Positions 4,488-61,974 of a stretch of DNA of 64,000 bases are shown here, piece by piece. Position 1 is the first letter of the stretch. Each line of letters opens with the position of its first letter. The DNA is taken from the sequence record OZ346187.1; one strand, given 5' to 3'. The position numbers were made by a program, and so were the translations under genes. The stretch is from a phage. The notes beneath the pieces were generated by a model that saw only the letters and a list, made by a program, of their open reading frames with translations, made no database searches and was not told where the DNA came from.

Positions 4488-7400
4488 ATGAGTATGTGGA
4501 ATTTTGACTTTGAGGCCTCAGGTCTTCTGGACGAGGAAGATCTTTACTACCATTGTGGCCTGTTTAAAGAGTTGAATAAAAATAATTTTATGTTGTTTTT
4601 GCCTATCAATGATAGATCTCATTACAGTGAAGAGGAGGTTGAAAAAGCAAAACAATTTATGCTGGCAAAGCAAGATATCTATCCTAGCTGCTCTGTCCGT
4701 ATTGCGGATTTCAGCCAGCTTGAATGGTGGTTAACCGGGAACTCCGATTGGTCACCCACATCATTAAGTTGTCACAACTGTTTTAGTTATGACTTTATCT
4801 TGATGGAGAAGCTGTCTGGTATTCATTTTGATATGTTCCGTGATCCCAAGTGTATGGGGACAATCAATAATCATCAGGTGAACCTGTTCGACACTCTGCC
4901 AATGAGTCGTATACTATGGCCCGACAGACCGTTACCTAAAGGATGCCCTGATTCTGTATACAATCCTGTTACAAAACGTATGCAGCAGGTAGGTCCTCAT
5001 GGCCTAATGGCGTGGGGGTACGCTTTAGGAAACCAGAAGGTTAAAATTGATGACTGGAGAAATTTACCTCTGTGGAAGTATGTTGATCGTGTATTCGAGG
5101 ACGTTATCATCCAGGAGCTGCTCTGGAAAGAGCTGGTAGCGGAATCAAAAGGTGTATTCTACGGCAAATCTGACATGCAGAACTTTATGTACGATCCAGC
5201 CAAAGAGAAGCCGAAAGGGTTCAAGAAGATTACCTGGAAGAATGCATTACGCCGAGGCATGCTGCAGCACTTCCTGATGGAGCTGCAGGCCCGTCAGGGT
5301 GTATACTTCGACATAGATGGAGCTATTGCTTTACGTGACCGTTGCGATGCGTGGATGAAAGAAATCGCTGATCGTGTTGAACCACAACTACCTTTAAAAG
5401 AGCTGTCAATGTCTCAGCGGCCCAAGTTCCCTGAAAAGCCGTTTAACCAAGACGGGACAATCTCTAATAATGGTTGGAAATGGTTAAAAGATAAGCTTGG
5501 CTATCCTGTAGACATGAGTGCTTTAGAGTTCAAAGCCCCGCCTAAGCGAGCATTTACCTCTACAGGAGATGTCAGCAAGATGGGGATAAAATGGTGTGAA
5601 GAGATGGGCTGCAAAGACCCCGATAAGATGGCTGATTTCTTGAGAGGCTATATTAAGGGCACCTCCACACCACAACCCTTACCTAAAGAGCTGATGGATC
5701 AGGCAATAAGTGATCTGCAGCAGAAGCGAATGCCTGACTGCAAGATACCTATGAAAATCAGCAATCAGGACGACATCAAGCGATACCTAATCAGTGCTGG
5801 TTGGCTCCCAACAATGTGGAGAACTAAAGATGTAACTAAAGACAGCAAGAAGAAAGCTTTACCTGATGCAGATGTTGATGCACGAGTATATGCATATATG
5901 GACGAGCTTTTGGAGTCAGAGTATTGTGACCTAATTATCAACTTCTGGAACAAAACTGATGCTAAGTTCCAGACAACCGTGCACAAGTTCCGAAGCTTTC
6001 CTAACTCCGAAAGGATTAAAAAGGAAGTATTCGGGAAAATACGTAGAAAAGCCAGGGCACTTATTACTTCTCCGCAACTGAAAGATACGTTTGGACACCT
6101 ATGCCCAAATCTTGAAAAATTGAACGGAGAGATGGCTAAAGATATCGTCTTGTGGTTATCATTGCGAAACCGCAGATCGGTCCTTGATCCAATCAAGGAG
6201 GATAAGGTTGATACTGGTCTTCTTAATCACCCACGTTTGAAGATTGACCATAAGCTTCCTGCTAAAAGCTCTGGATTAACAAACACTTCCAGACAGAAAC
6301 ACAGTATTTGTGCAAACATGCCTAAACCATCTCCTAAAGTGGTTATGGGTAAAGAGATGCGTAGTCTGTGGGGTGTTCCTCCGGGATACTTTGAGATCGG
6401 TATTGACGGGTCCAACTTAGAGCAGCTTATCGGGGCTTGGGGTGCCTTTGAGTTCGACAACGGCCTGTATTATGATGTTGTAAGTAATGGCGATGCACAC
6501 TGTTATTCAGGAGATACACAAATTCTCACGGAGAAAGGGTGGGTGAGGTTTGAAGATCTTGATCCGGGAACACAAGTGTTCCAGTACGATCACAACACCT
6601 CGTCAATGAACCTTGTTACTCCATTAAATTACGTTAAGCGTAGTTATTGTGGGGATATGTATCATTTCCACAACAGTAGTGTGGATTTTATGGTTACAGA
6701 TCAACACAGGATGCTGACTGTGGATCACAGAAGCAATAAATTGTTTGAAGATTTGGCAAAAGACCTGAAAGCAGGTAAAGGGTCTAATTCAGGAAGAAGG
6801 TTTATCCATGCGGCAGAGTTTTATGGGAATACAACCTTATCTCCTGCCCAGGTTAATTTGCTTATTGCTATTCACGATGATGGGCACTTGCATACAAATA
6901 AGGACGGCAGCATCGTGTGCAGGATTCAGGTCGGAAAGGGAAGAAAAGTTGCAACGCTTTTAGATACTTTTTCTGCTCTAAGCCTTAGTTATGTAGAGCA
7001 GAGCGGGAAAACCACAAAAGGGGGCTTACTGGCGAGAAGGTTCCAATTCCACGTTCCGTCCTGGGTATTTGAGTTTTTGGACAACAATAAGGATTTCACC
7101 TATAACCTGATGAACCTTGATAAAGAATCTAAAAACCTGTTTATAGCTTCTTTATCTAACTGGGACGGGTGGGTATCTTCCGAAGGTGGAAAGGTTGCTT
7201 ACTACTCCCAGGCCGAGTGCAGGAAGAAATCTGTAGAGGTGGTGTCTGCGCTGGCTACTCAGTGTGGTTTACGGAATAATACGGTGGCGATTCACAAAAA
7301 AGGTCGTGCCGTGCAGCACAGAATCACAATTGGTAGCAAACAGAGAGCAGGGTTGCTGACACTATCTAAAGAGTCTGTCGAGGTGAGCGGTTCTTTGGTT

Positions 7401-7880
7401 TATTGCGTTACCGTCCCTTCTGGAGCAATCATTGTGAGAAGGAATGGTAAAGTGGCAGTGTGCGGTAACTGTAATAACGCCAAAGCTTACTCTTCTGTAG
7501 CAGGCAAGGAGATTTCCCGTAACGATGGTAAACCTATCACGTATGGGGTTATGTATGGGGCACAAAAAGATAAAGTTGCAGATATGCTGGACATCTCCCC
7601 AGAGTTGGGACAAAGGGTAATCGATGCACTCTGGGATGCCAACCCAGGTCTTAAGGGGCGCAAAGAGGATCTGGAGAAATTCTGGGAAGCAACAGGTAAG
7701 AAGTTTATCTACTCTTTTGATGGTCATGCTATCTGGACCCGATCTAAACACTCTTTACTTAATGCATACCAACAAAATGGCGGTGCATCGTTGTGTGACT
7801 TAGTTGGAATACTCATGCACCACCAGATGGTGAAGCGTGGGTGGTACGATGAAGGTGTTCGTCGTATTATTTATTACCAT
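4488..7880 (+). CDS. DNA polymerase, family A (T7 gp5-like), exon 1, containing an intein
   Basis: N-terminal FDFEASGL...YHCG exonuclease motif; motif A-like IDGSNLEQL; motif B-like RNDGKPITYGVMYGAQ; ORF stop at 7884-7886 is assigned to the intron. Confidence 0.8.
6501..7469 (+). mobile_element. intein with LAGLIDADG-type homing endonuclease, in-frame between polymerase motifs A and B
   Basis: Starts CYSGDTQILTEKG (intein block A); two LAGLIDADG-like motifs (LLIAIHDDGHL, FIASLSNWDGWV); ends ...VAVCGN followed by Cys at 7470; 969 nt, frame preserved. Confidence 0.65.
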
Positions 7881-8132
7881 AAATAACATTGTGGCTTCAT
7901 AGAGTAATCTATGTCGAATAACCTCTTTAACTGCGGGAAGCCTAAACCTTATGGCAAGGTAATCCGCAACGAAGCGCTCAAAAGAGCGAACGCTCAGAGG
8001 CCATTCCGAAAGGAAGTAGACCAGCAAGTGCGGTCGAAATGGGAGGATTCCTGTGGTTGCTTATCATAGGAATATGAGATGGTCCGATCCTACGTGAAAA
8101 CGTATGGCTATGCACGTAATGGTGCGGGGTAG
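7881..8132 (+). mobile_element. ORF-less group I intron in the DNA polymerase gene
   Basis: P-like CTGCGGGAAGCC and Q-like AATCCGCAACG elements; exon ends in U (7880) that can pair with GUGG 11 nt downstream (P1); ACGU-GAAA-ACGU hairpin near 3' end; last nt G (8132); joining 7880 to 8133 keeps frame. Confidence 0.55.
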
Positions 8133-8510
8133 CTTAACGACCTACCTGAACTATTGGATGAGTACCAACTTCAAGTGCCTGACACACCGAAGTATAAGAC
8201 TGTGTACACCTTCGACACAATTGAAGAACTGGAAGCATTTAAGGCAGAGCAGGAAGCCAAACTTCATGTGTTCGACGGTCATAAGTACAAAAAGGCACGC
8301 AAGGATGAGGACGGAAACGAAGTGGTTGACAGAGACGGAAACACGGTGTACGATCCTATCCTGAACGATGACGGAAAGCTTGAACTTATCTGGAGCCCTG
8401 TGGGTGAAATGGTGGTACATTGCTTCTGGCAAGCTTCTAAAATGATGGGAGTCCCGTTCCAGATCACAGGTGAATACTTGTGTGGTCGTAATTGGGGTGA
8501 TTGTCACTAA
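8133..8510 (+). CDS. DNA polymerase, family A, exon 2 (C-terminal)
   Basis: Frame open from 8133; C-terminus ...CGRNWGDCH resembles the Pol I-family terminus (GENWDQAH-like). Confidence 0.55.
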   Translation, partial: LNDLPELLDEYQLQVPDTPKYKTVYTFDTIEELEAFKAEQEAKLHVFDGHKYKKARKDEDGNEVVDRDGNTVYDPILNDDGKLELIWSPVGEMVVHCFWQASKMMGVPFQITGEYLCGRNWGDCH

Positions 8511-16447: not shown

Positions 16448-16758
16448 TACTTGAAAATCCCTGGCATATCAAGTGTAAGGAGGATTTCTAAAATGGATTT
16501 CCTCCTTTTGATATTTCACCGGGCCAGATATTTTAAAATTCTTAGAAAATCAGGTCTTTGAAATGAAAAACAGATCGAGTACCGAAAGAGGATGTACAAA
16601 TTTTCTGATAATAATGGACTTATTGTTATAAAAGGTCAGAGGTAAGCTGGGAAAGTTCTGGTAGAAGGGTGAGAGTATGTGCGGAAAAATCTGGAATAGT
16701 GACTTAAAGTACGGTGCGAACGATAAGGAATTGAGCAGCACATCTTATCGTGCCTGTA

Positions 16759-17149
16759 TTTTGTGTGGATGAATGAGAATACCTATCATTGTGAGAACCA
16801 TTATCATTACGGGCAATTTAACAGTACCGATTATGCGCACCACTGGCGATACATACAGGGATTGATAACATGGGTTACTGTTTACGCACATAACAATTGT
16901 ATTTCTTACTATTTGTGTGGGCGTTTAGACGTTGACGGTCAGAAGTCTGCAGGTTAATATCTAATCTATTGGCTGCTAACTATATCCCACACAAATAGTA
17001 AGAAATACAATTGTTATGTGCGTAAACAGTAACCCATGTTATCAATCCCTGTATGCATGCCAGTGGTGCGCATAATGGGTATTATGTTAAATTGCCCGTA
17101 ATGATAATGGTTCTCACAATGATAGGTATTCTCATTCATCCACACAAAA
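16759..17149. repeat. large imperfect inverted repeat (two ~163-bp arms, 16759-16921 and 16986-17149, 64-bp spacer)
   Basis: Right arm is the reverse complement of the left with a few substitutions; mirror ORFs 16763-16957(+) and 17014-17205(-) give the same peptide; spacer holds TTGACG, 17 bp, TAATAT. Confidence 0.85.
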
Positions 17150-17379
17150 TAGATTGCAAATGTTGTGCCACTGTGTGAACGGCCTGGCCTATTAATTTGC
17201 CTCACTGCCTTGATATTTGAGAATTATTATAAGAATGAGAAGTATTCCCATTTCGTCCGCCTGGCAGCACTCCTGTAGGTCCTGCAAGGACTCTAGCTGA
17301 AAGCTAGACCCTTCGGGCCTCCCTGCAGGTCAGGTCAAAATCGTGGTAGAATTGGGCCTGTTCAGATATTTCTGGCTGA

Positions 17380-18590
17380 CTCTTCAGGTCTGTGTGGGAA
17401 AAGCCAACCTCTCCGGCGGGGCATGGGGTCATGACGGGAAAATTGCAGGTCAATTAAAAAATTTACGTGGTGTATGAAGCGCTCTTCAGGTAAGGCAGGT
17501 ATTATGGGATGAAACCCTCTTCAGGCAATGATATTTGTGGGTGTGATATTTGCTGGAAAGCCAGATATGACGGGACTCCCGGCGGGGCAGGGGTAGTACA
17601 GACAGGGAAAATATGGAGGATGTGGTTGGGTAAATTGATCAGGCAGGTAGAGTATGGAATATGTTACAGGTATGTTAAATAGGGAGGCTGAATATCTGTA
17701 GGATTTGTGTGTAAAATCAAAGACTTAAGTGGTGTTGTGGTATTTTCTATAAATAATTCAAGTTTAATAGGTAATATTTGTCTCTATTCGCTTTGTGTGG
17801 TAAACAGATTCAGATGAGATTGGTTTACAAGTGTATACATAATATACAAATTAAAGATACAAGAAACCCCCCTCCCCCTTCGGCTACCATTCACCTTTTC
17901 CTCTGACTGGTACTTAAACACTTATTCAGACTCTTCAGGTTATCACCCATATATCATATGGCAGTGACTGGTGTCCTCCGGCCCCTCTTTCGTCACCCGT
18001 CCGCTTCGCCATGCTAATGCCATAGCCAATGGTTCGGTTGTTCACCCTGTTCACTCAGGTGTATCTCCATACCCCTTCAAACCGAAGAGAACAGAAAACC
18101 CGAATTACTCGGTAAAAGAAAAGAGAAGAACTTAATTTTATCAGGATAGGCAAGAATGTCAAGGCATGACTGCTCACTAAACAAGCAAACAGTCATGTGT
18201 GGAAGGTAAGTGATTGTGGTGGTAGGAAATTTAGTTGAAAGATGTGTTATAGGTGCTTCCAGCACTTTAGCCGGGCAGCTAATTGTGTGTCAGTCCAGCG
18301 GTTCATCCTCTACTTCACTGAAATCAATGTTCATGGTCTCTTCCCAACCATCGATCTCAGCACAAGAGTGGAGTTCTTTAGGGTTTACTCCCAAAGCCTC
18401 AGCAACAGAGTCTATATTTAACACCTCTGGCAGGTATGATTCATCGAATTCAAGGTAAATCAGGCCACGAGTGTTGTCAGCTCCACCAAATATCTCTATC
18501 TTCATGAAATCTCCTCTGGAAATGAGAGTGTGAACAGGGTTTTATACGTTCTAATGCACAGGAATTATACACGTTTGCCTCTTCAGGCCA
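17380..18590. repeat. repeat-rich non-coding junction with recurring CTCTTCAGG 9-mer
   Basis: CTCTTCAGG at ~17380, 17482, 17516, 17931, 18579; related blocks CCGGCGGGGCA(T/G)GGGT at 17412 and 17578 and GGCAGGTA at 17493 and 17643; several short hairpins. Confidence 0.6.
18290..18505 (-). CDS. small acidic protein
   Basis: 71 aa, strongly acidic (D/E-rich); RBS-like AGAGGAGA upstream. Confidence 0.4.
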   Translation of the reverse strand: MKIEIFGGADNTRGLIYLEFDESYLPEVLNIDSVAEALGVNPKELHSCAEIDGWEETMNIDFSEVEDEPLD

Positions 18591-21950: not shown

Positions 21951-22211
21951 TTACAGCACCTCTTCGTCAACTACTTCATAAAAATGGCCTGGGATTGCAA
22001 TAGCGTTCTCACCTTCACCTACAAACACAGTTCCGTCAAGAATCAACATCATAAGAGTTTCTGGAATATCCTCTTCCTGAACGTTGCCAAAACCTTTAAT
22101 CAGCTCGTAGGTTGGAAGATTTACCTCTAAGATGTCACCATCTTTAGAGCGGAAATCAACACCATCCTGAATCTCTGCCATTTCAAGGTTTTTCAGTTTA
22201 ATCTTCATCAA
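21951..22211 (-). CDS. hypothetical protein (small-protein paralog group)
   Basis: 86 aa; MMKIKLKNL start, acidic tail ...VVDEEVL. Confidence 0.4.
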   Translation of the reverse strand: MMKIKLKNLEMAEIQDGVDFRSKDGDILEVNLPTYELIKGFGNVQEEDIPETLMMLILDGTVFVGEGENAIAIPGHFYEVVDEEVL

Positions 22212-22240
22212 TCAGTCTCCCGTCTTGTTAAGATGAAGGT

Positions 22241-22269
22241 ATTATTTCACACAGGGTTGGCGTTGTCAA
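22241..22269 (-). promoter_or_regulatory. sigma70-type promoter (minus strand)
   Basis: Reverse complement reads TTGACA, 17-bp spacer, AATAAT. Confidence 0.4.
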
Positions 22270-22287
22270 CACCTGTGTGCAAGAAAA

Positions 22288-22683
22288 TTACTGAAACAGT
22301 GCGGATAAATTACCTTCTGGTGGGAACTTATCTGCCAAAAACGGTGTTAGCACAGTAGCCTTCTGAAGATCTGGGGTCCACTCGTTGTTCAGAACATCCC
22401 AGTAGTACGCAATGTTGCTGTGTGGGTGCCGCATTACGAACTTTTTCCCTTCGTAGTCATCTGAAACCTCTACAGAAGAAATAACAACAGAATCTTCAAG
22501 GGTTTCTTCATAGAAAGATCCACCTTCAAATTTCCAACGAGATGCAAGAGCTCCTGCCTTGAACGCTGCAGATAACGGACTGTCTGCAAGAACATACATT
22601 TCTTGCACTCTGTCGCTGCGATCTTTGCTTCTTACGTTGTATACAGTATCTGAGCTATACTCAACACGGTATAGGCTTACCAT
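22288..22683 (-). CDS. hypothetical protein (paralog of 24490-24888)
   Basis: Shared motifs with 24490-24888: HP(H/D)S...(Y/H)YW(D/N)...(E/T)WTP. Confidence 0.45.
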   Translation of the reverse strand: MVSLYRVEYSSDTVYNVRSKDRSDRVQEMYVLADSPLSAAFKAGALASRWKFEGGSFYEETLEDSVVISSVEVSDDYEGKKFVMRHPHSNIAYYWDVLNNEWTPDLQKATVLTPFLADKFPPEGNLSALFQ

Positions 22684-23042
22684 TACCGCACCTCCTCAAT
22701 AACTTCCACATCTGAGCCCACCACAAATGCAAAAGGACAGGTTTCATGAAAGACATCCGGATCGCCGCCAAGCTTGCTAACAATCTCTCCACCACTAATA
22801 AACACAAGCTCACCGATATTCATCAGATTGCTGAAATAGTACCCATAATGATTAAAGAATGCAGCAGGGTCAGGTAGACTAGTAGCCTCAAGCACTACAT
22901 CAGTTGAGGTTACTTTCTTATCATAACCTCTCGCCTTTTGAGATGCAAGATCTGCAGAATCCTCAGGCGACCGGAGATGCACAGGAATTGTTTCACCAAT
23001 AAAGCGTACTTTCATATTATCACCCAACAACCATAGCTTCAA
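22683..23042 (-). CDS. hypothetical protein (small-protein paralog group)
   Basis: Internal MKVRFIGE... to ...SDVEVIEE matches the family; true start may be at 23015. Confidence 0.4.
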   Translation of the reverse strand: MKLWLLGDNMKVRFIGETIPVHLRSPEDSADLASQKARGYDKKVTSTDVVLEATSLPDPAAFFNHYGYYFSNLMNIGELVFISGGEIVSKLGGDPDVFHETCPFAFVVGSDVEVIEEVR

Positions 23043-23283
23043 AAGGGGTCATGAACGAATAAACGGCATCATCATCTGCTTCAGGGAATGCTCCCAAAGA
23101 CTTCATGTCTGAGCCCTTGACAAATACAAGGTTTTGATCAAAAGCTTCTTGAGGATCAATCCGATACATATTTCGTAGAATATCGCCTACCTCCTCATCA
23201 AGAGGTGAGTATGCTGTGCACGTTTTTCCGATCAAGCTTTGAGAATCAGGGTATCCACCTGAAGTTTTAAAATAAACAATCAT
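23020..23283 (-). CDS. hypothetical protein (small-protein paralog group)
   Basis: 87 aa; contains VFVKGSDMKSLGA. Confidence 0.4.
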   Translation of the reverse strand: MIVYFKTSGGYPDSQSLIGKTCTAYSPLDEEVGDILRNMYRIDPQEAFDQNLVFVKGSDMKSLGAFPEADDDAVYSFMTPFEAMVVG

Positions 23284-23374
23284 ATAGTATCACCTCTGGT
23301 AAGAGATTGGGATTCCTTTCCCACAAATAATTACAAACCTTCCTTATCGAGGAAGTATGCTAATCCAAGCAGGA

Positions 23375-23644
23375 TTATTCCTCTACAATCTCATACACAT
23401 CCGGAGTTACAATCAACTCTTCTCCGTTACCCGGTGCAACAAACACCACCATGCCTTCAGGTGTGTGCTTTTTAGCCATCTCGATAACATCTTCTCGCAG
23501 AGCTGGCTCCATCAGATCAAAACCTTCACCCAGGGCATCACGAACCACCTTCATATAGTCAACTGGTTGTGCTTCGACAATCATACCTTCAACCAGTCCA
23601 CAGTTTTTGTCTGCCAGCTCAGTTTTGAATAATTTAATTTTCAT
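23375..23644 (-). CDS. hypothetical protein (small-protein paralog group)
   Basis: 89 aa; MKIKLFK start, ends ...YEIVEE. Confidence 0.4.
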   Translation of the reverse strand: MKIKLFKTELADKNCGLVEGMIVEAQPVDYMKVVRDALGEGFDLMEPALREDVIEMAKKHTPEGMVVFVAPGNGEELIVTPDVYEIVEE

Positions 23645-23781
23645 TTAGAGGTCTCCTCAATTATTTGATATTAATAGCCGTAACCTAACACATTAACTAC
23701 AACTGCGATTGCAAACATAATTTCAAAGCATGCAATCTCTACATTTGGAACTAATTTCTTGATCACACCCATTGTAGCACC

Positions 23782-24099
23782 TCATTCTCTAAAGTCAATC
23801 TTTACTTTGCCTTTCCCCTTACCTTTCTTTCCACCGCATTTAGCCAGTTGACGTGCTGCAACATCTACCATACGGTCAGTTGCCTCGTAAGCATCACTGC
23901 CTTTAGCTTTGGCAATAACTTCTTTTCCAGAATTGTCAAAAATGAACGCCATAACTTCCTGGTGATCATTTTCAACTTTTACACTCACACGTGCATAGTT
24001 GGCAGAGGGATGCAAACGCTCCAGCTTAGACATTTTGTGGGAAATGAAAGACACCATACCTTCAGTGATTTCTACGTTGCCAGTGATTTCAATTTGCAT
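23782..24099 (-). CDS. hpf: ribosome hibernation promoting factor / RaiA-like protein
   Basis: MQIEITGNVEITEG...KLERL...VKVE...DAYEA.D...RQLAK with basic tail follows the bacterial HPF/YfiA pattern (MQLNITGNNVEITEAL...KL...). Confidence 0.6.
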   Translation of the reverse strand: MQIEITGNVEITEGMVSFISHKMSKLERLHPSANYARVSVKVENDHQEVMAFIFDNSGKEVIAKAKGSDAYEATDRMVDVAARQLAKCGGKKGKGKGKVKIDFRE

Positions 24100-24146
24100 A
24101 ACGTGTTCCTTTTAAAGAAGAGGGAACCAAACCCTCTTTGAAAACA

Positions 24147-24175
24147 ATGATACTAAATCTGAAGCGTTGTGTCAA
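24147..24175 (-). promoter_or_regulatory. sigma70-type promoter (minus strand)
   Basis: Reverse complement reads TTGACA, 17-bp spacer, TATCAT; lies upstream of the HPF-like gene. Confidence 0.45.
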
Positions 24176-24181
24176 CAGTTT

Positions 24182-24472
24182 TTACAGATTGTTGTCGATA
24201 GTTTTTAAAATATCCACAGCAAGATCTGCCATTTTTCGAACATACTCTGCAAACTCAACAGGATCCTTGATCAAAGAATTCACAGGGTCGTACCCTAGAG
24301 CGTTCAAAATGGCTGCAGCATCTACAACCTTCTCATCATTTGCGAAGATCTCTCCATCAAACTTGTAGGTCCATTTTGAGTCAATCTTGGCAGGGAATGA
24401 TTGGTCAACGCTTGTTACACCATCCTTTTTAAACGCTCCGGTGTTATCAGTGTCTAGAACTAAATCCATCAT
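24182..24472 (-). CDS. hypothetical protein
   Basis: 96-aa ORF. Confidence 0.4.
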   Translation of the reverse strand: MMDLVLDTDNTGAFKKDGVTSVDQSFPAKIDSKWTYKFDGEIFANDEKVVDAAAILNALGYDPVNSLIKDPVEFAEYVRKMADLAVDILKTIDNNL

Positions 24473-24489
24473 GTTAGTACCTCACCGTT

Positions 24490-24888
24490 TCAGTTTAGCT
24501 TTTCTTCAACAACCCCATAGCTCGGGACAGAGTCAAGAGCTTTCTGGTTTAAAAGTGGTGTAGCAGAATCTGCAAACGGTGTCCAAGTTTTTGTTCTGGC
24601 ATTCCAGTAATGCTTCACTCTGGAATCTGGATGCACTATAACAAAAACTTTTTCACTTGTCAACACATTAATTTCTTCTACACCCTTGCTGATAATTTCT
24701 CCGTCATAGCCACCAGTCTGGTATCCTTCGTACCAGGTTCTTGCATATGCATAGCCAGCCTGCCAGCATGCAGCCTCCTCCGAGGTGGAGACTACGTAGA
24801 AGTCTTTCTCAAATTCTGGGATACGCCCTTGCTTTACGCTCCAAGCTCCGCGAATTTTCATTGTAACTTTGAACAGTTTATTTTTCAC
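24490..24888 (-). CDS. hypothetical protein (paralog of 22288-22683)
   Basis: Shared motifs VIVHPDSRVKHYWNARTKTWTP. Confidence 0.45.
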   Translation of the reverse strand: MKNKLFKVTMKIRGAWSVKQGRIPEFEKDFYVVSTSEEAACWQAGYAYARTWYEGYQTGGYDGEIISKGVEEINVLTSEKVFVIVHPDSRVKHYWNARTKTWTPFADSATPLLNQKALDSVPSYGVVEEKLN

Positions 24889-24900
24889 AACGGTTACCCA

Positions 24901-25155
24901 TCACAGCTCTACAATCTCTGCATCTGACCCTGCCCCAAAGGCATAATAGGATTCTTCCCCGAAATAATATTCCGGTGCACCAGCAGCGATCAGGTCTGAT
25001 CCCAAGATAAACACCACGTTGTGGCCTACATAACTGTGATGTTGCCGCACAGGATCATCCCACGGCAACCCTTCAAAGTATACCGCAGGAACGACCTTTC
25101 CCTTCAGGAAGGATTGTCCCAAGTAGACGTTAGAATCAAGAATTTTAACCTTCAT
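24901..25155 (-). CDS. hypothetical protein (small-protein paralog group)
   Basis: MKVKILDS...GSDLIAAGA...EIVEL. Confidence 0.45.
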   Translation of the reverse strand: MKVKILDSNVYLGQSFLKGKVVPAVYFEGLPWDDPVRQHHSYVGHNVVFILGSDLIAAGAPEYYFGEESYYAFGAGSDAEIVEL

Positions 25156-25372
25156 TCTCGTCCTCCACTATCTCTACATCCTCACCAAGGGCAAAGTTGT
25201 AGGTCCACTGGCTGTCAAAGCAGTCCTGAGATGCACCAGCGGAAATAAGATCTGCACCTTTTATTTTTAAAAGGTCAGGATAATCTTCGTTAGGGATAGC
25301 GGTAAACACTTTCCCCACTAAGGGCTCCTGACCAATATAGAAGCTTGAATCTAAAACTTTAACTTTCATCAA
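25145..25372 (-). CDS. hypothetical protein (small-protein paralog group)
   Basis: MMKVKVLDS...GADLISAGA...EIVEDENEG. Confidence 0.45.
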   Translation of the reverse strand: MMKVKVLDSSFYIGQEPLVGKVFTAIPNEDYPDLLKIKGADLISAGASQDCFDSQWTYNFALGEDVEIVEDENEG

Positions 25373-25656
25373 CGGTCTCCCTCAGGCGGTTGTGGGACGT
25401 AAACACTGTTACGAATATCGTCAGCAGTGTAGTAATAAGTGGTTCCAACCCTATCTCGGGCTGCAATGTACTCTGCTATACCAATAAGTGCCATTGATTT
25501 GGTGGCGTATCTTCCCCACTCGTTAGCTCCCCAGTAGAATTTAGACCAGTAGGGAATAATACCGAACAAATATACCTTTTGACGAACTTCCCAGTAAGTG
25601 CCTTTTCCGACAAGTTTAAACTCTACTTCACTACTGTTAATCTTTTTCATTATCAA
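25369..25656 (-). CDS. hypothetical protein
   Basis: 95-aa ORF. Confidence 0.4.
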   Translation of the reverse strand: MIMKKINSSEVEFKLVGKGTYWEVRQKVYLFGIIPYWSKFYWGANEWGRYATKSMALIGIAEYIAARDRVGTTYYYTADDIRNSVYVPQPPEGDR

Positions 25657-25949
25657 TCTCCCTCTACCGTGGTCGGATTGTCAGTAAGAAATTGAGCATT
25701 GGCTGGAGGCACGCCTGACATTTTCCACACAACCATAAGTTTGTAACCAGGAACTCTATTAAGTGCAGATCGAGTAGAGTTTGTGCACGTATACTTTCGC
25801 TTTCCAAACCCGTTCTCCATCATAATCCAGTACCCAGTATCTTTGTCACCAGGTATCGGTAGACCACCTTCATCAACCCACTGAATGGACCACGGCACGA
25901 TGGCTACAGCTTTATATTTAAACTTTTTAAACCACTCAAAAAGTTTCAT
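25653..25949 (-). CDS. hypothetical protein
   Basis: 98-aa ORF. Confidence 0.4.
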   Translation of the reverse strand: MKLFEWFKKFKYKAVAIVPWSIQWVDEGGLPIPGDKDTGYWIMMENGFGKRKYTCTNSTRSALNRVPGYKLMVVWKMSGVPPANAQFLTDNPTTVEGD

Positions 25950-26044
25950 AATTCAGCCTCGCATAGACATAATCACTATAAACAGGCAAACAATGAATCC
26001 GAATGCCACGCCACCCATAAACGTTAATATTGATGCAATCATAG

Positions 26045-61103: not shown

Positions 61104-61162
61104 TGTAAACATGGTCTCCCACCTTTTCTGGCGGCTAAGGTGTAAAAGAAAGCCACCCAGTG

Positions 61163-61237
61163 CCCTGTTAGCTTAGTGGATAAAGCAGCGGCCTTCTAAG
61201 CCGTTGACACTGGTTCGAGTCCAGTACGGGGTGCCAA
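61163..61237 (+). tRNA. tRNA-Arg (anticodon TCT)
   Basis: Hand-folded cloverleaf: acceptor GCCCTGT/ACGGGGT (with G.U pairs), anticodon loop CTTCTAA, T-loop GGTTCGAGTCC, CCA encoded. Confidence 0.65.
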
Positions 61238-61241
61238 ATTG

Positions 61242-61327
61242 GGGAGTTATCCCGTAGAGGTAGCGGTGTAGACTGTAAATCTATTGTCATTGCGACTCGG
61301 GTGGTTCGACTCCACCACTCCCCACCA
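61242..61327 (+). tRNA. tRNA-Tyr (anticodon GTA), long variable arm
   Basis: Acceptor GGGGAGT/ACTCCCC, anticodon loop CTGTAAA, T-arm GGTGG-TTCGACT-CCACC, CCA encoded. Confidence 0.65.
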
Positions 61328-61441
61328 AATTTATATTTTTAGATGCATAAATAATACAGATAATGGCATTGATATTTATCGTCGTTTATACTAGTCACTA
61401 ACTGCTCGAAAATCAGTGTCATTATCAGTATAATTTATAAA

Positions 61442-61532
61442 GGAGGGTAGGGAGCAATGGTGCTCAAGCGGTCTTGAAAACCGTCCCGTTGAGGATGACT
61501 CGATGATGGTTCGATTCCATTACTCTCCGCCA
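61442..61532 (+). tRNA. tRNA-Ser (anticodon TGA), long variable arm
   Basis: Acceptor GGAGGGT/ACTCTCC, D-stem GAGC/GCTC, anticodon loop CTTGAAA, T-loop GGTTCGATTCC, CCA encoded. Confidence 0.6.
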
Positions 61533-61630
61533 CATTGTTGACCTTGTAATTAAGCGAAAGCCGGAAGCAGAACCGGATTATCAAATGTTACAGTCGTCAT
61601 CGCCGACTAGCAACATGGTCAACATACTGA

Positions 61631-61729
61631 GCTAGGTAAGCCCTTTGGCAAGGGCGAGGATTTTTAATCCTGAAAATAGACGAGGTAGTCGTTGAATACA
61701 TAGGTGGTTCGATTCCATCACCTAGCACC
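61631..61729 (+). tRNA. atypical tRNA-like gene (~99 nt), anticodon ambiguous (most consistent with TTT)
   Basis: Perfect 7-bp acceptor GCTAGGT/ACCTAGC, D-arm GCCC-TTTGGCAA-GGGC, T-arm GGTGG-TTCGATT-CCATC; anticodon stem imperfect with loop TTTTTAA; ~29-nt extra region before the T-arm; 3' end ACC then T (CCA not fully encoded). Confidence 0.35.
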
Positions 61730-61734
61730 TTTTT

Positions 61735-61810
61735 GCTGATGTAGCACAATCGGTAGTGCAATTGATTTGTAATCAATAGGTTGTAGGTTCAAGTCCTGCC
61801 ATCAGCACCA
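61735..61810 (+). tRNA. tRNA-Thr (anticodon TGT)
   Basis: Acceptor GCTGATG/CATCAGC, D-arm GCAC-AATCGGTA-GTGC, anticodon stem ATTGA/TCAAT with loop TTTGTAA, CCA encoded. Confidence 0.7.
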
Positions 61811-61811
61811 A

Positions 61812-61886
61812 GGCCCTGTAGCTGGAAGGTTCAAGCAAGCGACTCATAATCGCCAGACGGTGGTTCAATTCCACCCAGGGCCACCA
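61812..61886 (+). tRNA. tRNA-Met (anticodon CAT; initiator, elongator or Ile-lysidine type not resolved)
   Basis: Acceptor GGCCCTG/CAGGGCC, anticodon loop CTCATAA, T-arm GGTGG-TTCAATT-CCACC, CCA encoded. Confidence 0.65.
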
Positions 61887-61897
61887 AATAGTAAATA

Positions 61898-61974
61898 CTC
61901 CGCGTAGCTCAGCTTGGTAGAGCGCCTGATTTGGGATCAGGAGGTCGAGTGTTCGAATCACTCCGTGGAGACCA
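61898..61974 (+). tRNA. tRNA-Pro (anticodon TGG)
   Basis: Acceptor CTCCGCG/CGTGGAG, D-arm GCTC-AGCTTGGTA-GAGC, anticodon stem CCTGA/TCAGG with loop TTTGGGA, T-arm GAGTG-TTCGAAT-CACTC, CCA encoded. Confidence 0.7.

Follow-up and report, generated by a model that had tools for sequence, protein, structure and literature searches.

The locus described here lies in a window of 64,000 nucleotides, the whole stretch of DNA analysed, which comes from the phage sequence record OZ346187.1. On its minus strand, an open reading frame with an ATG start encodes a protein of 105 residues (MQIEITGNVEITEGMVSFISHKMSKLERLHPSANYARVSVKVENDHQEVMAFIFDNSGKEVIAKAKGSDAYEATDRMVDVAARQLAKCGGKKGKGKGKVKIDFRE); the position of the frame and the length of its product agree exactly with those given in a first-pass annotation of the same DNA. 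The 6 kb surrounding this hpf-like coding sequence are occupied by a dense array of small ORFs on the minus strand. Positions 22000..26000 of the window are 100.0 % identical to Escherichia phage AlexBoehm (MZ501048.1), which is part of the BASEL collection and belongs to the genus Vequintavirus. The features of the locus, together with some observed elsewhere in the window, are collected in Table 1.

Table 1. Features of the hpf-like locus and of other parts of the window, in window coordinates
Feature	Position	Strand	Remarks
hpf-like CDS	23782..24099	-	ATG start; 105 aa plus stop; bas56_0150 of phage AlexBoehm; ortholog of rV5 gp139 (ORF144)
S30AE/HPF core domain, residues 1-90	23830..24099	-	β1-α1-β2-β3-β4-α2; AlphaFold2 model
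Lys/Gly-rich tail KKGKGKGKVKIDFRE, residues 91-105	23785..23829	-	predicted disordered, pLDDT <50
Shine-Dalgarno-like AAGGA	24107..24111	-	7 nt before ATG; conserved in Vequintavirus loci
7-bp hairpin AAGAGGG/CCCTCTT	24118..24138	-	predicted transcript 5' end; weak, possibly incidental
Sigma-70-type promoter	24147..24175	-	-35 TTGACA 24170..24175; 17-nt spacer; -10 TATCAT 24147..24152
TTGACT-16-TACAAT (rejected candidate)	23798..23771		in the 3' end of the CDS
33-aa ORF	23671..23772	-	starts 9 nt past the hpf stop; ribosome-binding site GAGGTG
89-aa ORF	23375..23644	-	two genes downstream of hpf
131-aa ORF	22288..22683	-	28 % identical to the 132-aa ORF
132-aa ORF	24490..24888	-	flanks hpf on the other side
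ORF, first of adjacent pair	24901..25155	-	paralog of the next
ORF, second of adjacent pair	25145..25372	-	paralog of the preceding
1132-aa ORF	4488..7886		directly followed by the intron
Group I catalytic intron (RF00028)	7871..8106	+	full model 1-253
86-aa ORF	8104..8364		directly preceded by the intron
Region devoid of ORFs of at least 70 aa	~16450..18200		about 1.8 kb, either strand
Seven-tRNA cluster	61162..61974	+	includes the 99-nt gene below
Odd 99-nt tRNA gene	61631..61729		four-base anticodon (atcc)

The encoded protein belongs to the HPF/RaiA superfamily and is nearer to short HPF than to RaiA. It matches the Pfam family Ribosomal_S30AE (PF02482) with an E-value of 1.8e-12 and 48.3 bits against a gathering cut-off of 23.7, the match covering residues 3-88 of the phage protein and positions 1-83 of the 88 in the model, and it scores 45.9 bits against the NCBIfam model of the HPF/YfiA family (TIGR00741; cut-off 40.9). 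Alignment to HPF/YfiA/RaiA profiles had been proposed earlier as the check on this identification, and the protein passes the curated cut-offs of both models. At the level of equivalogs the scores stay below the cut-offs. The enterobacterial short-HPF model NF007780 is the top NCBIfam model for the phage protein, although its score of 55.8 bits lies below the cut-off of 125 bits, and the RaiA/YfiA model NF007654 yields 17.6 bits against a cut-off of 158, the phage protein having no RaiA-like acidic end to its tail. Long HPFs are defined by a second, C-terminal dimerisation domain and a length of about 180-190 residues; the phage protein has 105 residues and a single Pfam domain, with residues 91-105 predicted to be disordered.

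Sequence comparisons with individual proteins lead to the same placement. When the PDB was searched by sequence, the best matches were E. coli HPF chains (2rql, 4v8h and 6h4n; E ~5e-12, residues 1-89). Pairwise alignment gave 43 % identity to E. coli HPF over residues 1-87 (E 5e-18), the E. coli sequence used being in agreement with the PDB alignment, and 25 % identity to E. coli RaiA (E 2e-5). Because of this 25 % identity, the score of 17.6 against 158 bits and the unlike tail, 'RaiA', the name given to the phage protein in RefSeq, is not the best fit. In the phage HPF, aligned with 19 members of the family, the only invariant residue, D69, is present and the near-invariant T12, K22, A63, Y71 and D75 are all kept. 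The HPF-pattern motifs quoted in the first-pass annotation are likewise all found in the translation, and its identification of the gene as a phage-encoded HPF/RaiA homolog is thus backed by curated profile cut-offs, pairwise similarity and conserved family residues, as well as by the predicted fold.

An AlphaFold2 model of the phage HPF, built from an alignment of 21 sequences, has a mean pLDDT of 82, with values of about 87-94 in the core, and consists of strands at residues 2-7, 33-43, 46-55 and 60-67 and helices at residues 13-29 and 70-92. Foldseek comparison of the model with V. cholerae HPF (4hei) gave TM scores of 0.82/0.93 and an rmsd of 1.0 Å, and comparison with E. coli HPF in the 100S ribosome (6h4n) gave 0.82/0.90 and 1.1 Å. 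Every one of the 36 best PDB matches is an HPF, a RaiA, pY or the related RafH; ranking below the HPFs are double-stranded RNA-binding domains and small phage inhibitor proteins with weak scores. The phage protein is therefore predicted to fold like HPF.

Positions of ribosome contact were taken from those given for structures of Gram-negative HPF-ribosome complexes (bioRxiv 10.1101/2025.10.07.680626) and are stated here in E. coli numbering. The phage HPF keeps K23, K26, E60, D75, R83, K87 and K91, among which R83 is the arginine that contacts m4C1402 (bioRxiv 10.1101/2025.10.07.680626). Other contact positions are changed (T53F, H55F, K80V, K89G and R33S, and Q29 is replaced by R). Canonical binding is less well supported with these changes but is not thereby overturned, since phenylalanine at position 55 and valine at position 80 are also seen in some bacterial members of the family in the alignment.

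Beyond the core, the protein ends in a basic tail, as claimed earlier: residues 87-105 (KCGGKKGKGKGKVKIDFRE) carry a net charge of +6, compared with +3 for the tail of E. coli HPF and -2 for that of RaiA, and the pI of the whole protein is 9.0 versus 6.5 for E. coli HPF. The tail runs on for about 10 residues after E. coli HPF has ended. A frameshift within the Lys/Gly repeat alters it in APECc02 (101 aa) and Murica (99 aa), and in the lineage of cluster P0004, which is 64 % identical to the phage HPF, the tail is basic and of unrelated sequence. Comparison of these tails suggests that basic character is conserved and the exact sequence is not.

The gene is widely shared among related phages. 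It is carried, at 90 % protein identity or more, by 119 of the 121 phage records that match the 4-kb region, where the ortholog group goes by the names hpf, RaiA, sigma 54 modulation factor, S30AE and ribosome hibernation factor. For the core, pN/pS pooled over 11 Vequintavirus orthologs amounts to 0.097, and to judge by these substitutions purifying selection acts on the hpf-like gene. When 1.84 billion representative proteins were scanned without a profile, only 22 scored E≤1e-3. The sole close cluster among them is P0004 (64-65 % identical, 103 aa) and all others are at most 45 % identical, so that, by sequence, the phage HPFs form an isolated phage lineage with no more than 45 % identity to any cellular HPF. 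P0004 is encoded, in syntenic position, on uncultured phage contigs of 125-137 kb with a similar array of small genes, including an 89-aa gene downstream as at the present locus. For the comparison with this 64 %-identical lineage no dN/dS ratio could be computed, synonymous sites being saturated; the presence of the gene there and this saturation together imply that the gene is older than the split of the two phage lineages. Transfer of HPF to the phage has been read as 'relatively recent' by Mizuno et al. 2019 (PMC6375957), which looks optimistic given the 43 % identity to the host protein.

Some individual records deserve mention. The ortholog in Escherichia phage JES2013 (L011) has a GTG start and asparagine at the otherwise invariant D69; the alternatives here are an error in sequencing and a natural hypomorph. 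In 18 records within MG065635-MG065684 named 'Campylobacter phage' (host given as Campylobacter or C. jejuni), hpf is found at 96 % identity or more; these are unannotated, rV5-like genomes of about 135-143 kb, and their host label looks doubtful. In several bovine and O177 phage records the true hpf is mislabelled 'ATP-dependent protease La type I'.

A tblastn search of 50,697 phage records at E≤0.01 found no homolog of RMF, which rules out a phage-encoded RMF partner among the records searched. Short HPF needs RMF as its partner in forming 100S, turning the 90S dimers that RMF induces into 100S. Any 100S-promoting activity of the phage HPF would consequently depend on the RMF of the host.

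The consensus promoter that the first-pass annotation had assigned to the gene was recovered in a consensus scan as TTGACA-17-TATCAT, matching 11 of the 12 consensus positions and ending 47 nt upstream of the ATG. Sites with at most one mismatch and a 17-nt spacer number 11 in the window against 0.58 expected (~19-fold), a count reached in none of 100 shuffles, and the strands on which they lie track the local orientation of genes. This enrichment of near-consensus sites, together with the agreement in strand, points to a real class of promoters. Looser promoter-like matches show no enrichment in the 4-kb region (11 versus 7.6 ± 2.7 expected). The 11 Vequintavirus loci that were compared all share the promoter sequence with little or no change, the GenBank record of rV5 annotates the hpf promoter as P144, and a divergent relative at 64 % identity has its own TTGACA element, placed nearer to the ATG. 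From its sequence and conservation, the promoter is probably used in vivo.

Two further candidate elements near the gene were considered and rejected. The hairpin in the leader has a folding energy of -9.9 kcal/mol and a z-score of -0.8 against shuffled sequences; phages of the V18 type carry a mismatch in it without a compensating change, and the divergent L003 lineage is devoid of the hairpin. A regulatory role in the 5' UTR was accordingly discarded, as stability is no better than that of shuffled sequence, compensatory changes are missing and the element is absent from the divergent lineage. The TTGACT-16-TACAAT match in the 3' end of the coding sequence has a -10 element that overlaps the start codon of the next small ORF, and it is read as a chance match or as a promoter for genes further downstream.

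Most related genomes have the 33-aa ORF that follows hpf annotated as a CDS, and the two are probably transcribed together. Read from the DNA, the product of the 33-aa ORF looks strongly hydrophobic and could be a small membrane peptide. In APECc02, nomine, A6-1 and further records the 89-aa ORF beyond it is called 'sigma 54 modulation factor'. The 89-aa ORF was rejected as a second hpf-like gene on the ground that it has no Pfam match at E≤0.1, and for the same reason its name is taken to be a misannotation spread from hpf, two genes upstream. The two adjacent ORFs listed in Table 1 are paralogs with 41 % identity (E 2e-16), and the 131-aa and 132-aa ORFs on either side of hpf are also similar to each other (E 3e-11). 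Several neighbours of hpf begin with MK(V/I)K and finish in an acidic, (E/V)IVE-like stretch; six neighbour ORFs were compared with Pfam and gave no match.

Elsewhere in the window, the group I catalytic intron scores 64.7 bits against an Rfam gathering score of 50 bits, and since it is directly flanked by the 1132-aa and the 86-aa ORF, an intron-split gene is suggested. The tRNA cluster comprises Arg-tct, Tyr-gta, Ser-tga, Thr-tgt, Met-cat and Pro-tgg as well as the odd 99-nt gene, for which the four-base anticodon was called by ARAGORN and the Rfam score is 35.5 bits. The region devoid of ORFs adjoins a change of sign in GC skew and a switch of coding strand, and no tandem repeats were found in it. 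It probably corresponds to the ORF-free region that Kropinski et al. 2013 described in rV5 (104013-106618).

The gene and its promoter are already known: GenBank records annotate them, and at least two papers have discussed them. In the AlexBoehm record bas56_0150 is annotated 'ribosome hibernation factor', and the rV5 record describes the CDS ORF144 as 'similar to Klebsiella oxytoca probable sigma(54) modulation protein'. The rV5 protein (ABI79209, 105 aa) is counted as a virus-encoded ribosomal protein by Mizuno et al. 2019 (Nat Commun, PMC6375957), who placed it among gammaproteobacterial HPFs in their tree and proposed that a viral HPF might compete with the host protein and so prevent dimer formation. 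When these authors expressed the rV5 protein from pBAD24 in E. coli, its peptides were present in the crude extract and absent from 70S/100S fractions prepared under high-stringency salt, and the abundance of 100S was unchanged in cultures where 100S was scarce (PMC6375957). They deem the result inconclusive and offer growth phase, a true loss of binding and salt-induced dissociation as possible reasons (PMC6375957). With this experiment, the ribosome-binding test that the first-pass annotation had named as able to refute its claim has in part been carried out, on a protein 99 % identical to the present one. Mathieu et al. 2020 (PMC6969025) noted that rV5-like phages carry hpf. A full-text literature search revealed no functional work on phage HPF later than these two studies, and no transcript or timing data were found for the rV5-like group; phages go unmentioned in a 2025 preprint on hibernation-factor evolution, as does hibernation in the BASEL paper. 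The present analysis adds the selection on the gene, the isolation of its lineage, the contact residues, the tail and the lack of a phage RMF.

Considering this evidence, the best-supported reading is that of a working, diverged short-HPF-type factor which would bind vacant ribosomes in a salt-labile manner, at the decoding channel of the 30S subunit, and would probably be made early, encoded by a fixed core gene of the genus Vequintavirus; for the identity and the ribosome-binding mechanism taken jointly, we regard the balance of evidence as roughly even. Host RNA polymerase would transcribe the phage hpf from its own near-consensus sigma-70 promoter, and because of this promoter expression is probably early, alongside the surrounding block of small genes. 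The protein would probably dock in the HPF/RaiA pocket of the 30S subunit, between head and body and over the A/P tRNA sites and the mRNA path, with contacts made through α1 and α2 (K22, K25, R83, K87 and K91) and the face of the β-sheet, and only vacant ribosomes could be bound. The Lys/Gly tail may add non-specific contacts to rRNA past the point where E. coli HPF ends, and binding would probably be salt-labile and reversible. The benefit to the phage would likely lie in controlling the pool of idle ribosomes, or in preserving it, when the host grows slowly or is stationary. The first-pass annotation had offered, as a conjecture, that a phage HPF could modulate ribosome dimerisation or hibernation, and we retain it at that strength. 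Against the reading as a working factor stand the failure to reach the enterobacterial HPF equivalog, the replaced contact positions, the absence of a phage RMF and the negative published co-purification. The last of these, however, fits a hibernation factor, an antagonist of hibernation and a repurposed protein alike and separates none of them.

Among the alternatives, the one that survives best, unlikely as we consider it, is a competitor that acts against hibernation: weak occupancy of the HPF/RaiA site, or the basic tail lying at the RMF site, would prevent host RMF and HPF from locking ribosomes into 100S, and ribosomes would stay free to translate phage mRNAs in stationary cells and in those made dormant by defence. 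This hypothesis was stated by Mizuno et al. (PMC6375957), and a disordered, strongly basic tail that outruns E. coli HPF by about 10 residues would suit it, as the C-terminal tail of RaiA points to the RMF site and RaiA blocks the formation of 100S. Weak, salt-labile binding would also fit the negative co-purification, and without an RMF of its own the phage alone could not promote 100S. An occupant of the HPF site would nevertheless block the mRNA and tRNA sites too, and would have to be easily displaced if it were to help translation. Moreover, the sequence is far closer to that of HPF than to that of RaiA; the tail shows no resemblance to the RaiA one and is truncated or frameshifted in some isolates that are apparently still viable. 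Levels of 100S were not visibly changed on expression, though 100S was scarce under those conditions (PMC6375957). A rather improbable counter-defence form of HPF mimicry can also be envisaged, in which a weak core and the Lys/Gly tail would exclude host RMF, HPF or RaiA, or would shield the decoding site from ribosome-directed toxins, and the phage would thereby translate in stationary or dormant cells. If this is true, bacterial ribosome hibernation would have in such a mimic its first viral antagonist.

It is similarly improbable, in our estimate, that the protein was repurposed and has ceased to be a ligand of the ribosome, its α/β fold, which resembles a double-stranded RNA-binding domain, binding another RNA or a protein during host takeover. 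The replacement of contacts on the β-sheet and α2 (T53F, H55F, K80V and K89G) would agree with such a change, but F55 and V80 occur in bacterial family members as well, and the strongest conservation is found at the residues that face the ribosome in this family (K22, K25, D75, R83 and K87). No stable association with the ribosome was seen on expression in E. coli (PMC6375957), although that negative test used high-salt ribosomes and its authors list dissociation in the salt wash as a possible cause (PMC6375957). The isolation of the lineage, with one cluster above 45 % identity and 22 proteins at E≤1e-3 among 1.84 billion, also speaks for repurposing, as do the next fold matches below the HPFs, double-stranded RNA-binding domains and small phage inhibitor proteins, weak as these are. 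Finally, a functionless, decaying passenger gene from a gammaproteobacterial host, to which the C-terminal frameshift variants and the GTG start and N at D69 of JES2013 might point, is effectively refuted by selection and conservation, given a pN/pS of about 0.1, an intact gene in 119 records, its retention with its own promoter in a lineage with saturated synonymous sites, and stable production of the protein in E. coli (PMC6375957).

The existence of the gene in itself adds little, since the annotation is found in more than 100 public genomes and the product of the gene was analysed and expressed in a 2019 paper. Its interest lies in the reason for which a strictly lytic genus of coliphages maintains an HPF, with strong purifying selection acting on it and a host-type promoter of its own. 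Knowing this reason would tell whether phages exploit ribosome hibernation in non-growing hosts or work against it, which bears on phage therapy of stationary-phase bacteria, and the fact that AlexBoehm infects E. coli K-12 should make the role of the phage HPF easier to test.

Amongst known systems, the closest are the other phages of the group. Phage rV5 has the same gene at the same position with the same promoter, its protein gp139/ORF144 (ABI79209, YP_002003641) being 99 % identical with R104G as the difference, and bas56_0150 of AlexBoehm is the same gene with a 100 % identical protein. With E. coli short HPF (YhbH; 2rql, 4v8h, 6h4n) the phage protein shares the single-domain fold and a basic C-terminus, in addition to the N-terminal MQ(I/L)xITG..VEIT and the C-terminal ARQLxK motifs; it differs in being 10 residues longer with a Lys/Gly tail and in the replacement of T53, H55, K80 and K89. 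The host hpf is located in the rpoN operon, whereas the phage gene has a sigma-70 phage promoter. Expression of the rV5 protein brought no discernible change in 100S (PMC6375957). E. coli RaiA (YfiA, protein Y) has in common with it the family, the fold and a C-terminal extension past the core, but the tail of RaiA is longer with an acidic run at its end, while that of the phage HPF is rich in Lys and Gly.

Phage-encoded proteins with the S30AE fold also occur in jumbo phages, namely Cronobacter phage GAP32, Escherichia phage PBECO4 and Xanthomonas phage XaC1 (phrog_8990). These HPFs are about 22 % identical to the present protein in a structure-based alignment and fall into PHROG 8990, compared with 12469 for the present protein, and Mizuno et al. 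(PMC6375957) placed GAP32 elsewhere in the HPF tree. On account of the different PHROG, the low identity and the separate placement in the tree, the HPFs of jumbo phages and those of the rV5 type are regarded as independent acquisitions.
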